A DNA stretch of 64,000 nt from Acidimicrobiales bacterium (GCA_965116465.1 OZ220687.1:1894321-1958320), one strand, 5' to 3'. Numbered from the stretch's first letter, positions 25,425-61,996 are shown. The notes: generated from the letters alone by a model not told the origin. Made by a program: numbers and translations.

Positions 25425-26336
25425 GTGCACTATCCGCCCGAAGCCCTGGCCGGCGTGTTCCCGGTCTTCCAGACGCCCTTCGACGAGAACGACGACATCG
25501 ACGCCGCCGCCCTCGCCGCCGAGATCGAGTGGGTGTACGCCTGTGAGGTGGACGGGATCGTGCTGGCGATGGTGTCGGAGGTGCTGCGGCTGAGCACCAC
25601 CGAGCGCAGGCACCTGGCCGAGCTCTCGTGCAGCCTCGGCCTGCCGCACGGGCCGGTGATCGTCTCGGTGGGGGCCGAGAGCACCAAGGTCGCCGTCGAC
25701 CTGGCGCGTCACGCCCAGAGCGTCGGGGCCACCGCCGTCATGGCCATCCCCCCCATCTCGGTGGGGGTGGGCGACAGCGAGTTGTCGGCCTACTACGAGG
25801 CGCTGCTGGCCGCCATCGACATTCCCGTGGTGGTGCAGGACGCCAGCGGCTACGTGGGGCGGCCGATGTCCATCGAGATGCAGGCGAACCTGTTGGACGC
25901 CTACGGCGATCGGGTGCTGTTCAAGCCCGAGGCCGTGCCCATCGGCCCGCGCCTGACCGAACTGCGCGACGCCACCGGTGGGCGGGCCCGCGTGTTCGAG
26001 GGCTCCGGCGGCATCGCGCTCGTGGACAACTACCGGCGCGGCATCGTCGGCACCATGCCGGCGGCGGACACCCCGTGGGCGCTGGTTGCCCTCTGGCGGG
26101 CGCTGGAGGCGGGCGACGAGGCGCGCGTCGAGGCCATCGCCGACCCGCTGGCCCGCCTGGTCTCGCTCATGGACAGCCTCGACGCCTTCGTGGCGATCGA
26201 GAAGCACCTGCTGGTTGCCGAGGGGATCTTTCCCAGCGCCCGCCGCCGGGGGCCCGTGGGCTACGACCCCGACCCGGAGACGCTGGCGGAGGTGGACCGG
26301 CTCGTGGGGCGCCTGCGCGAGGCGGTCGACGGCTAG
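25425..26336 (+). CDS. DHDPS/NAL-family class I aldolase or dehydratase (not true DapA)
   Basis: GVFPVFQTPF, AMVSE instead of GTTGE, VVQD, Schiff-base Lys in LFKPE; resembles the 2-keto-3-deoxy-sugar-acid dehydratase/aldolase subgroup. Confidence 0.8.
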   Translation: MHYPPEALAGVFPVFQTPFDENDDIDAAALAAEIEWVYACEVDGIVLAMVSEVLRLSTTERRHLAELSCSLGLPHGPVIVSVGAESTKVAVDLARHAQSVGATAVMAIPPISVGVGDSELSAYYEALLAAIDIPVVVQDASGYVGRPMSIEMQANLLDAYGDRVLFKPEAVPIGPRLTELRDATGGRARVFEGSGGIALVDNYRRGIVGTMPAADTPWALVALWRALEAGDEARVEAIADPLARLVSLMDSLDAFVAIEKHLLVAEGIFPSARRRGPVGYDPDPETLAEVDRLVGRLREAVDG

Positions 26337-26369
26337 ACGCACCCGCAACGGGTCGCCGGGGCAGCCGTT

Positions 26370-27323
26370 ATGGCGTCGAGGACGTTCGCCTCGCGCCTCT
26401 GTGCGCCGGAGGGGCCCACCATCGGGCCGGACGGGTGGGTCCTGAACGTCTGCTCCTTCACGCGGGACGAGGCCTGGCCCACCCGCGGCGGTGACATCTG
26501 TGCAACCAACCTGGGCGCGCCGGGCCGGACGAGGCGGCTGTTCAACACCAGCGCCGACGGTGTGGTGGGGCTGCCGGCCGCGCTGGCGTTCGGCCCCGAC
26601 GGTGCGCTGTACGTCACCGACGAGGGGCACCGGGCCATCTTGCGGGTCACCCCCGACGGCACTCGCAGTCGCTGGGTGGACGCCTTCGACGGCGAGCCGC
26701 TGAACGGCCCCAACGATCTCTGCTTCGACGCCGACGGCAGCTGCTTCTTCACCGACCCGTGGGGCAGCTCGCTGGCGAACCCGGTGGGTGCCGTGTACGG
26801 CCGGGCCGCCGCCGGCGACGTGCGCCGCATTGATTCCGGCATGGGCTTCCCCAATGGCATCGCGGTGCGCGGCGAGAGGCTGTACGTGGCCGAGACGCTG
26901 CGCAGCTGCGTCTGGGTCTACGACATTGTCGGCCCGGGCGCGGCGGTGGACCGCCGCCTCTTCTGCCGCCAGCCGCCGGTGCCCGATGCTCCCGTCTGCG
27001 GGCCCGACGGCATGGCGTTCGATTCCGAGGGGAACCTGCTCGTGACGCACTACGGCTCGGGCCACGTCTTCGTGTACGACGCGGGCGGCATCGAGGTCGA
27101 CCGGATTCGCTGCGGGGGCACGTCGCCCACGAACGTCTGCTTCGGCGGGGCGGACCACACCACCGTGTTCATCACCGTCGACGACACCGGGGAGATCGTC
27201 ACGGTCGACTGGGGCGTGCGCGGCCAGACGCTCAACTTCTGCCCGTCGGCTTGGCACGGTCCCCATCCCTTTGCTGCCATGATGACGATCGACGAAGCTC
27301 CGAGGGGAGAGGCAGGGGCATGA
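26370..27323 (+). CDS. SMP-30/gluconolactonase family beta-propeller
   Basis: PEGP, LNGPNDL, FFTDP, FPNGIA, GPDGMAFDSEGNL, PTNVCFGG. Confidence 0.9.
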   Translation: MASRTFASRLCAPEGPTIGPDGWVLNVCSFTRDEAWPTRGGDICATNLGAPGRTRRLFNTSADGVVGLPAALAFGPDGALYVTDEGHRAILRVTPDGTRSRWVDAFDGEPLNGPNDLCFDADGSCFFTDPWGSSLANPVGAVYGRAAAGDVRRIDSGMGFPNGIAVRGERLYVAETLRSCVWVYDIVGPGAAVDRRLFCRQPPVPDAPVCGPDGMAFDSEGNLLVTHYGSGHVFVYDAGGIEVDRIRCGGTSPTNVCFGGADHTTVFITVDDTGEIVTVDWGVRGQTLNFCPSAWHGPHPFAAMMTIDEAPRGEAGA

Positions 27324-61577: not shown

Positions 61578-61618
61578 CCTGAGCCGCCGTCAGAGGTCTA
61601 TCCGATAGAGGAGCCGTC

Positions 61619-61996
61619 ATGGCGAAGCAGCCGATCAGCAGTGCGTCCGCACCCCAGCCGTCGGGGGCCTACTCGCAGGGCATCGCCGCCGGCGGGTTCG
61701 TGTTCCTGTCGGGTCAGGGACCGTTCACGCCCGCCGGCGATGTGCCCGCAGGGGGCTTCGGCGCCCAGGCGCGCCAGACCTTCGCCAATCTGGCGGCGGT
61801 TGCCGAGGCCGCGGGAGGCTCGCTGGCCGACGCCGTGCGTGTGGGCGTCTACCTGCACGACATGAGCGACTTTCCGGAAATGAACGCCATCTACCGCGAG
61901 ACGTTCCCCGAACCGCTGCCGGCGCGCACCACCATCCAGACGCCCCTGCCGGGCTTCCTCATCGAGGTGGACGTCGTCCTGCACCTCGGCGACTGA
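61619..61996 (+). CDS. RidA-type enamine/imine deaminase
   Basis: APQPSGAYSQGI, FLSGQGP, MNAIYRETF, PARTTI, IEVD; GAGGAG RBS. Confidence 0.9.
   Translation: MAKQPISSASAPQPSGAYSQGIAAGGFVFLSGQGPFTPAGDVPAGGFGAQARQTFANLAAVAEAAGGSLADAVRVGVYLHDMSDFPEMNAIYRETFPEPLPARTTIQTPLPGFLIEVDVVLHLGD

Follow-up and report, generated by a model that had tools for sequence, protein, structure and literature searches.

A Probable Genus-Specific, Layered Island of Catabolic Operons at the ask-asd Junction of Sponge-Associated Acidimicrobiia

Introduction

How does a bacterial chromosome come to carry some 37 kb of catabolic operons between ask (aspartate kinase) and asd (aspartate-semialdehyde dehydrogenase), two genes that are neighbours in most related families, and what would these operons break down? 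The question is raised by a stretch of 64,000 nucleotides from an Acidimicrobiales bacterium (GCA_965116465.1, OZ220687.1), hereafter called the window, which covers positions 1,894,321-1,958,320 of a single 3.53-Mb contig (genome G000). The closest public loci belong to sponge and coral metagenome-assembled genomes (MAGs) labelled Acidimicrobiia (bins COS4, SB0661/SB0665, RHO1/RHO3 and 'Ca. Spongiisociaceae'). An initial annotation had described positions 25425-61996 of the window as an accreted island specialised in amide and lactam C-N cleavage, with no regulator or mobility gene. The locus is likely a genus-specific, layered, chromosomal catabolic island of sponge-associated Acidimicrobiia, and not one borne by a mobile element. 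It has at least three layers: a core common to the genus, a cassette nested in this core, and local duplications.

Position of ask and asd across the Order

The positions of ask and asd were compared in 40 relatives of G000. Of the order's 20 other families, 15 have the two genes adjacent and co-oriented; in the remaining ones, they are either co-oriented 1.5-8.5 kb apart (three families) or located on separate contigs (two families). In the sister genus (three genomes), ask and asd are convergent, with 18-113 nt between them, and the gene order is PPI-ask, then asd-MpaB. The genus of G000 has the same convergent orientation, and the two genes lie 20.2-37.4 kb apart in ten contiguous genomes and more than 46 and more than 57 kb apart on two further contigs.

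From these orientations, the inversion of asd appears to predate the genus and would already have been present in the ancestor of the family. Because of this earlier inversion, the insertion would have entered a convergent gap and not an ask-asd operon. The initial annotation saw an island accreted between two usually adjacent genes; the adjacency is borne out by the 15 families. The opposite picture, in which the whole arrangement is ancestral and ask and asd are unlinked across the clade, was not encountered: the genes are linked order-wide, and relatives share the arrangement only partly. Accretion appears well supported by the synteny.

A Core Common to the Genus

The ask-asd intervals of nine genomes of the genus and two of the sister genus were used, and all their proteins were compared. 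Twenty core genes, covering ~22 kb, are common to the genus, with 73-99% amino acid identity (mostly 80-98%); for comparison, ask and asd are 84-93% identical across the genus. Their order is conserved: a nucleoside 2-deoxyribosyltransferase-like protein (NDT), a DHDPS-family enzyme, an SMP-30/gluconolactonase-like protein (SMP30), HyuA, HyuB, an 89-aa protein, FmdA, a short-chain dehydrogenase (SDR2), a sugar-type ABC importer with its substrate-binding protein (SBP), a D-aminoacylase-family deacylase (DAA), a YjgF-like Rid protein, a fold-type III pyridoxal-phosphate (PLP) enzyme (DSD), a further SDR (SDR3), an amidohydrolase resembling the large subunit of N,N-dimethylformamidase (DMFase; the protein is called DMFA) and RidA. 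One of the twenty, an AMP-dependent acyl-CoA ligase, is shared across the genus only as a 58-65% homologue, and the smallest locus (G010) has no match for FmdA, the SDR2 orthologue, SBP or YjgF.

NDT is present in all genus loci examined and does not lie between ask and asd in the sister-genus genomes G018 and G019. As NDT (24876-25358) is the first inserted gene, the island starts at 24876 and not at 25425; the initial annotation had named the correct flanking genes and set this border one gene too late. The GC content of the core (0.701 and 0.702) equals the genome mean (0.698) and the core identities match those of ask and asd, which argues for a long residence.

Outside the genus, orthologues of HyuA and DMFA were found neither in the sister genus nor in the 20 representatives of other families (41 genomes in total); the other matches in these genomes are paralogues with 45% identity or less. 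A search with the DMFase-like protein returned the genus orthologues at 79-94% identity, then a gap, and then a next group at 55-59%.

Counterparts of the core were encountered at other loci. In L086-L088, belonging to genomes of 3.0-3.6 Mb, a set SBP-permease-permease-ATPase-DMFA-RidA is convergent with a set 89-aa protein-HyuB-HyuA, with the DHDPS gene adjoining. The identities to G000 amount to 66-73% for DHDPS, 69-71% for HyuA, 80-82% for HyuB, 69-72% for the 89-aa protein, 62-81% for the ABC parts, 55-58% for DMFA and 64-65% for RidA; the closest paralogues within G000 itself do not exceed 49%. The neighbours of the L086 cluster (E1 dehydrogenase) have their G000 orthologues (67-70%) at 983-986 kb; hence, this cluster occupies a different genomic place. 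Two metagenome contigs, L091 and L092, have the order SBP-permease-permease-ATPase, an unidentified gene, DAA, YjgF, DSD, SDR and DMFA, preceded by an SDR gene divergent from the ABC operon, as in G000; an M20 peptidase and a CE4 deacetylase are placed between DMFA and RidA. The identities to G000 are 70-74% for DAA and 73-74% for DSD. The DAA-YjgF-DSD-SDR block is kept in L092; in L091, DAA, DSD and SDR3 are 65-74% identical, and the position of YjgF is taken by an unannotated 73-aa open reading frame (ORF). In a marine Chloroflexi MAG (GCA_002717345.1, L089), SBP, DMFA, the permeases, the ABC ATPase, HyuA and HyuB stand together. ABC orthologues (62-81%) head the corresponding operon throughout L086-L092, and the pair of DMFA and RidA is kept in L086-L088, L091 and L092.

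The core operons thus occur ready-made in other bacteria. They form two modules on the plus strand of the window: module A (25425-34255; DHDPS, SMP-30-like protein, HyuA, HyuB1, HyuB2, 89-aa protein and FmdA/AmdA) and module D (50105-61996; SBP, two permeases, ATPase, DAA, YjgF-like protein, PLP enzyme, SDR, DMFA and RidA). As these clusters recur in L086-L092, both modules are parts of recurring gene sets and not chance assemblies, and the amide-cleavage theme of the initial annotation finds its strongest support here.

This recurrence bears on the possibility that the island is a patchwork lacking a shared function, a convergent, terminator-rich gap tolerating inserts, with the amide theme arising by chance in a hydrolase-rich genome. 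Paralogues are indeed numerous in G000 (11-13 HyuA, 14 HyuB, 16 P450, 23 acyl-CoA ligases and ~50 SDRs), part of the inserted DNA (the cassette and a defence-like insert in G007, both described below) is unrelated to amide cleavage, and genes shift between this locus and other places of the genome. Chance is, however, a poor account of the compact cluster of ABC, DMFA, RidA, HyuAB and DHDPS in L086-L088, of ABC, DMFA and HyuAB (without RidA and DHDPS) in the Chloroflexi MAG, and of ABC, DAA, YjgF, DSD, SDR and DMFA in one operon of L092 (in L091 with the 73-aa ORF at YjgF). Moreover, the FmdA, DAA and DMFA families are each represented by no more than one or two genes in G000: the island, within 1% of the chromosome, holds the only FmdA-family gene, one of the two D-aminoacylase-like genes and one of the two DMFase-like genes. 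A patchwork is therefore considered improbable.

A second alternative is that the genes are ancestral backbone of the family, cleanly deleted in the sister genus. The unremarkable GC content and the identities of the core, both signs of a long residence, would agree with it, and the neighbour genes of L086-type clusters diverge like the cluster genes, which fits vertical descent. On the contrary, the adjacency of ask and asd in 15 of 20 other families, the lack of any HyuA or DMFA orthologue in the sister genus and the different neighbours of the L086 cluster are not expected from an ancestral backbone, which also costs one event more than a gain in the genus. A deletion in the sister genus is distinctly less probable than a genus-specific gain, and we regard it as quite unlikely.

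A Nested Cassette

The second layer is a cassette of ~14.6 kb (34283-48913), which is missing at the locus in all nine contiguous relatives compared. Its AtuA-like gene was encountered in only three of the 41 genomes, G000, G007 and G015 (three of the 18 genomes of the genus), and in each of them the cassette stands on the ask contig, between FmdA and SDR2; no copy was found elsewhere in the carrier genomes or in other relatives. The same unit, P450 followed by DctP-DctQ-DctM-AtuA-DUF4387-UGSC-351aa-ACAD-SDR-BKACE, is present in at least 20 other Acidimicrobiia MAGs with identities of 44-88% (mostly 55-88%, ACAD being the lowest), and at every cassette locus P450 and dctP are transcribed divergently. 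A SAR324 single-cell genome possesses a more distant version, without DctP, P450 and ACAD.

The GC content of the cassette is 0.678, the 11th percentile of windows of the same size, which moves it in the direction of the 0.60-0.65 found in other carriers. A tree of the 6.4-kb rpoB locus has the topology (G000,G004),(G006,(G008,(G007,G017))), in which G000 and G007, both carriers, do not form a sister pair (approximately unbiased test, p = 1e-103); G015 was not placed because it has no rpoB. This distribution requires a minimum of two gains at one slot, or alternatively a single gain with four or more losses. The DNA identity between G000 and G007 is ~92% in the cassette and ~88-89% in the flanks, a step at the borders that is too small for calling a recent transfer. 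The acyl-CoA ligase tracks the cassette, with 86% identity in G007 and 79% in G015 against the 58-65% of the non-carriers. The alleles of SDR2 split less cleanly (87% in G006, 88% in G007 and 70-75% in the others, including the carrier G015), and a second acyl-CoA dehydrogenase, ACAD2, is specific to G000 and missing from G007 and G015.

As predicted from its protein families, the chemistry of the cassette is carboxylate uptake and CoA-dependent breakdown of beta-keto acids, not amide cleavage. It would be a separate unit, through which a carboxylate is taken up, probably by the only TRAP transporter of the genome, and broken down through CoA esters. The 351-aa protein has no match in Pfam or among solved structures. 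The theme of amide and lactam C-N cleavage, which the initial annotation had extended to the whole island, hence holds for the genus core, parts of which recur across phyla, and does not hold for the cassette, with its carboxylate and acyl-CoA metabolism.

The UGSC gene of the cassette contains an in-frame TGA (38795-38797, minus strand). This codon is kept in 22 other loci (within L021-L044), in the context GLGN-U-GACTAWSCHDG. A selenocysteine tRNA gene is located at genome position 1981571-1981666, 23 kb beyond the right end of the window; it lies next to genes for glnA, an NAD synthetase and a sigma factor, none of them a sel gene. With the Pfam match, the conserved TGA and the tRNA, the selenoprotein that had been proposed for the island is confirmed as a sound prediction.

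Local Duplications and Variable Slots

The third layer consists of duplications in place. HyuB1 and HyuB2 are tandem copies with 87-88% identical proteins (86% at the DNA level); a single copy is found in G007, G010, G015 and all outgroup clusters. In dctP, an in-frame tandem duplication with a period of 936 nt (89% DNA identity over 300 nt) results in two tandem binding domains.

Gene maps of 11 genus loci revealed inserts at eight slots: ask-NDT, NDT-DHDPS, SMP30-HyuA, 89aa-FmdA, FmdA-ligase, ligase-SDR2, DMFA-RidA and RidA-asd. Several of the genes in the variable slots of relatives have orthologues elsewhere in G000 with 76-92% identity. For example, a ~320-aa gene between ask and NDT in four species matches G000 position 954509, and three genes after RidA in G013 match positions 2122100-2125028. 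In G007 (C137, ~5-27 kb from ask, loci L079-L081), a 22-kb insert is found at the NDT-DHDPS slot. It encodes AAA ATPases (DUF4143, AAA_22/AAA_35 and sigma54-type), a JAB-ThiF fusion, a VWA protein, an OmpA-CAP protein and a protein of 1811 aa that resembles the beta subunit of RNA polymerase (31% identity to RpoB over 555 aa). From these families, its content looks like that of a defence island.

Such variation could also be expected from a classical mobile element (integrative and conjugative element, prophage remnant or composite transposon) with its mobility genes decayed or outside the window. The island resembles one in its absence from close relatives, where the flanking genes are adjacent, in its content varying by species and in the defence-like insert of G007; an extra tyrosine recombinase is also located ~60 kb before the left end of the window. 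However, no DNA-binding regulator, integrase or transposase was found with Pfam among the island genes, no tRNA in the window (ARAGORN), and no Rfam family in the window at the gathering threshold; a repeat search returned neither direct nor inverted repeats at the borders of the island or of the cassette. The composition of the core is not deviant, only the cassette being mildly low in GC, and the variable slots are situated between operons, not at one end. Among the eight largest proteins of the G007 insert, the only variable-slot genes of relatives that were run against Pfam, no integrase or transposase was detected. Mobile-element carriage is thus very unlikely. What is found instead is the pattern of a flexible island: the same site, between ask and asd, with a gene content varying between species. 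Gain and exchange would likely have proceeded by homologous recombination through the conserved flanking genes.

Enzyme Assignments

Against solved structures, HyuB scores 315 bits with N-methylhydantoinase (7HK5) and 249 bits with caprolactamase (6YRA), compared to 104 bits with acetophenone carboxylase and 55 bits with acetone carboxylase. In NCBIfam, the caprolactamase subunits rank first (CapA 501 and CapB 324, with a cut-off of 1000 each), which indicates membership at the family level only. The set HyuA-HyuB-HyuB-small protein could, on the other hand, be of the acetone/acetophenone-carboxylase type, in which case module A would not cleave C-N bonds. The two HyuB subunits and the small Cys-rich protein do resemble the make-up of a carboxylase, and weak NCBIfam matches to acetophenone carboxylase subunits exist. 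Against this stand the two HyuB copies being recent duplicates, with a single copy in four relatives and in all outgroup clusters, and the small protein having no match to carboxylase gamma subunits; the 89-aa protein has no sequence match to any solved structure. The carboxylase assignment was rejected on the HyuB bit scores and appears very improbable.

Since the genome holds 11-13 paralogous systems, the substrate of this HyuAB is not readable from its family. The HyuA/HyuB family is strongly enlarged in G000; the number of HyuA proteins is 5-17 in the genus, 3-9 in the sister genus and 0-3 in other families. N-methylhydantoinase genes have been reported in sponge microbiomes using host creatinine (PMC6742649); the HyuA expansion fits this use and does not identify the substrate of the island copy.

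Along its whole length, the DMFase-like protein can be aligned with the large subunit of the Paracoccus enzyme (6LVB) and with N-acetyl-(R)-beta-phenylalanine acylase. Its residues Y426, Y467, E549 and H547 align with Y399, Y440, E521 and H519 of 6LVB, the first three of which are iron ligands with H519 nearby (PMC7686228). The Paracoccus large subunit is inactive alone (PMC7686228). Dimethylformamide being synthetic, the natural substrate of the DMFase-like protein must be another amide. For the FmdA-like protein, the only matches are uncharacterised 'acetamidases' from structural genomics. We know of no natural substrate of the DMFase-like and FmdA-like families.

DAA matches the Alcaligenes D-aminoacylase (1M7J), an N-acyl-D-glutamate deacylase and the GlcNAc1A deacetylase PpOngB, and keeps the HxH motif, the His and the Asp of the metal site. 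In the binding protein of the ABC importer, a ~170-residue Ala-rich stretch follows the lipobox at the N-terminus; its length varies within the genus.

Regulation and Chromosomal Position

Scans of the whole genome (3.53 Mb) identified four TetR, two GntR and two LysR regulators and three tyrosine recombinases. None is present in the window, and the TetR, GntR and LysR regulators are all more than 400 kb away from it. Eight regulators leave a random 37-kb stretch empty ~92% of the time; hence, a regulator-free island is the norm for this genome. The absence of regulators noted initially is therefore correct for the island, according to Pfam, and is no specific trait of it, the whole genome being poor in regulators. 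A local protein regulator probably does not set the expression of the island. In the related clusters of L086 (20330-21007) and L089 (19006-19704), a GntR/FCD regulator is adjoining, which has no orthologue in G000.

The ~180 nt between SDR2 and SBP contain invariant blocks and a predicted fold, as compared in ten genomes of the genus. In this leader, 91.9% of the cells are paired, versus 33-54% with slid partners, and the covariation is 0.307, versus 0.06-0.16 in the slid controls. Compensatory changes occur in five of six pairs of one helix, G.U pairs are found on the plus strand only, and a hairpin enclosing the ribosome-binding site is fully conserved. The G000 leader folds at -83.2 kcal/mol (z = -3.0). 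It was found in 12 genomes of the genus, all those examined of the 18. A covariance model (R1) recovers one copy in G010 and two in G007. With this model, G000 has no further copy and the outgroup clusters L086-L090 have none, so the leader does not belong to a riboswitch class with repeated copies. Rfam searches, both at the gathering threshold and at E<=10, gave no family for it. Control of the ABC operon may lie in this predicted leader RNA, which is at this stage a lead and not a demonstrated riboswitch.

Scans for consensus promoters, as the initial annotation had suggested for the island, and for terminators gave results at or below chance, except for one promoter-like site upstream of dctP (44851-44823). 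The replication origin was located near 1.75 Mb by cumulative GC skew and the switch of gene strand. The island is situated 170-200 kb from it, mostly on the leading strand and beside the rpoBC-ribosomal cluster; the cassette operon is head-on to replication.

Proposed History and Pathway

The synteny is observed as such, and from it we infer an order of events. First, asd would have been inverted in the ancestor of the family, leaving ask and asd convergent and separated by a gap of only 18-113 nt. This gap would then, in the genus ancestor, have gained ~22 kb of ready-made catabolic operons. The locus would have stayed a hot spot, with at least eight variable slots, the cassette in three of 18 species, and hyuB and dctP duplicated in place. 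Gain and exchange would have used homologous recombination at the conserved flanking genes.

For the core, the ABC importer would take up an N-acylated compound resembling a D-amino acid or an amino-sugar acid, or a related lactam. DAA and the DMFase-like iron amidase would strip the acyl groups, and HyuAB with its small partner would open a lactam or hydantoin ring at the expense of ATP. The PLP enzyme would deaminate or cleave the released D-amino acid, the Rid proteins would hydrolyse the resulting enamine or imine, and the SDRs and the DHDPS-family enzyme would pass the keto acid to central metabolism. Experiments have demonstrated a comparable succession, with a deacetylase followed by a fold-type III PLP deaminase and RidA, in the ong pathway and in the catabolism of N-acetyl-D-Ser/Thr (PMC9537276, PMC12017989).

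A number of points weigh against this history and this assignment of functions. A gain in the genus is preferred to a loss in the sister genus by parsimony alone. The comparison with L086-L088 does not separate a transfer of the core cluster from its relocation. Gain and loss of the cassette cannot be told apart, its DNA identity being barely above that of the flanks, and recombination junctions were not identified at the locus. Concerning the enzymes, all NCBIfam equivalog scores are far under their cut-offs. No small-subunit gene was found beside the DMFase-like gene, whose neighbours are the SDR and RidA, with no small ORF between. In DAA, an Asp replaces the metal (zinc) ligand Cys96 of the Alcaligenes enzyme. 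Finally, the order of the pathway is taken only from the families and the recurring gene order, and is probable at best.

A broader proposal can be formulated, which we put forward as tentative and rather unlikely: the core would encode an undescribed, widespread pathway for a natural compound of the N-acyl-D-amino-acid-like, amino-sugar-acid-like or lactam type, of host or dissolved-organic-matter origin, with a new cis-acting leader RNA replacing the GntR/FCD repressor in a regulator-poor genus. Its possible parts are the ABC importer, DAA, YjgF, the PLP enzyme, the SDR, DMFA, RidA, HyuAB with the 89-aa partner, and DHDPS.

Gene Content of the Island

Genes were called from GC3 and frame bias and checked against Pfam, NCBIfam and PDB sequences, as the GC content of the window (~70%) floods unfiltered ORF lists with false frames. 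Positions 25425-61996 hold 33 genes, or 34 with NDT, and the largest intergenic gap in the island is 188 nt (Table 1). The initial annotation counted about 36 genes, none of them a transcription factor, integrase or transposase, with all gaps under 200 nt. Apart from the count, this description agrees with the present calls, and the amide-hydrolase families, two Rid proteins, PLP enzyme, two importers, P450 and selenoprotein that it listed were all located with Pfam, NCBIfam or PDB. Upstream of ask, the window contains rpoB, rpoC, rpsL/G, fusA, tuf, rpsJ, a carboxyltransferase and a cyclophilin gene. An assembly artefact was rejected, the arrangement recurring in 11 independently assembled genomes.

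Table 1. Features of the ask-asd locus in the window (positions counted from its first nucleotide).
Feature	Position	Strand	Evidence
ask (aspartate kinase), left anchor	23635-24879	+	Pfam AA_kinase + ACT; orthologues in 40/41 relatives
NDT, nucleoside 2-deoxyribosyltransferase-like	24876-25358	+	Pfam Nuc_deoxyrib_tr; start overlaps ask stop
DHDPS-family enzyme	25425-26336	+	Pfam
SMP-30/gluconolactonase-like protein	26370-27323	+	Pfam
HyuA	27325-29412	+	Pfam Hydantoinase_A
HyuB1	29409-31250	+	Pfam Hydantoinase_B
HyuB2	31222-33069	+	Pfam Hydantoinase_B
89-aa Cys-motif protein	after HyuB2, block 27325-33335	+	
FmdA/AmdA-family (acetamidase/formamidase-like)	33347-34255	+	Pfam FmdA_AmdA E 8e-21; PDB 2II1 E 2.6e-35
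Cassette operon: DctP(x2)-DctQ-DctM-AtuA-DUF4387-UGSC(Sec)-351aa-ACAD-SDR-BKACE-83aa	34283-44782	-	Pfam
UGSC selenoprotein, one in-frame TGA	38546-39079	-	Pfam UGSC E 5.6e-31
TRAP importer	40862-44782	-	Pfam
P450	44896-46158	+	Pfam
AMP-dependent acyl-CoA ligase	within 44896-48913	+	Pfam
Second ACAD (ACAD2)	47807-48913	-	Pfam; G000 only
SDR2, divergent from ABC operon	49093-49923	-	Pfam
Conserved structured leader (predicted) 5' of ABC binding-protein gene	49929-50107	+	
Sugar-type ABC importer: SBP_bac_1 lipoprotein, two permeases, MalK-like ATPase	50105-55138	+	Pfam
ABC binding protein (SBP)	50105-51886	+	
D-aminoacylase-family deacylase (DAA)	55210-56808	+	Pfam; PDB 1M7J E 1e-78, PpOngB E 5e-59
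YjgF-like Rid protein	56805-57281	+	Pfam
Fold-type III PLP enzyme (DSD; D-Ser dehydratase/D-Thr aldolase type)	57274-58422	+	Ala_racemase_N + D-ser_dehydrat
SDR (SDR3)	after PLP enzyme, block 55210-59193	+	Pfam
DMFase-large-subunit-like amidohydrolase (DMFA)	59217-61577	+	PDB 6LVB E 3e-138
RidA	61619-61996	+	TIGR00004
asd (aspartate-semialdehyde dehydrogenase), right anchor, convergent with ask	62055-63080	-	Pfam

Comparison with Known Systems

The locus is a well-resolved example of a symbiont chromosome gaining metabolism without mobile-element genes, a convergent gap made by an inversion having probably turned into a durable entry point for operons that exist ready-made elsewhere. Four amidohydrolase families are tied together here in gene clusters found in several phyla, which makes them candidates for enzyme assays. 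The locus also suggests that, besides the use of creatinine reported for sponge microbiomes (PMC6742649), de-N-acylation and the opening of lactams are part of the nutrition of sponge-associated Acidimicrobiia. It also illustrates that a missing local regulator must be judged against the whole genome, regulators being scarce everywhere in this one. Most worth pursuing are the recurring clusters of DMFase-like, HyuAB and D-aminoacylase genes and the leader.

HyuA and HyuB have the two-subunit A/B architecture of the ATP-dependent enzymes N-methylhydantoinase, caprolactamase and 5-oxoprolinase, their nearest relatives by sequence, and differ in the conserved 89-aa partner protein and in scores below the cut-offs. 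DMFA shares full-length homology, the iron site of two Tyr and one Glu and the nearby His with the Paracoccus DMFase (6LVB) and the acylase 8I5A. Unlike the Paracoccus enzyme, it has no small-subunit gene, and its context of an ABC-importer/RidA operon is found in at least five other loci.

The ong cluster of Pseudoalteromonas prydzensis, for oxidised chitin (GlcNAc1A), also combines a deacetylase of the D-aminoacylase fold, a PLP deaminase, RidA and a dedicated importer, and the logic of deacylation first and deamination second is shared. However, the island DAA scores higher with D-aminoacylases (268 bits) than with PpOngB (203 bits), uptake would be by an ABC system and not by an SSS transporter, and three further components are present in the island: the DMFase-like amidase, a second Rid protein and an SDR. 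Because KDG kinase, GH20 hexosaminidase and OngR are absent from the 34 island genes (Pfam), the island is likened to the ong module and not filed as a member of it.

UGSC proteins form a selenoprotein family with no known function that is abundant in ocean metagenomes; the U-x-x-C motif, the Pfam match and the conserved in-frame TGA are common to that family and to the island protein (PMC2398784). Here, in contrast, the gene is embedded in the conserved TRAP-AtuA-DUF4387-ACAD-BKACE operon of the cassette.

Marine bacteria of the Alteromonas, Prochlorococcus and Pelagibacter types are known for their flexible genomic islands, hypervariable hot spots that keep a fixed place in the chromosome. 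Like these islands, the present one has a fixed locus between core genes and a cargo differing in close relatives, and needs no resident integrase. It differs from them in carrying mostly catabolic operons, in its conserved genus core with layers that can be ordered in time, and in its position, a convergent ask-asd gap near the origin and the rpoBC-ribosomal cluster, with no tRNA. Hot spots of this kind and the enzyme families involved are already known, and the ask-asd island is a clear, not an unprecedented, case of them.

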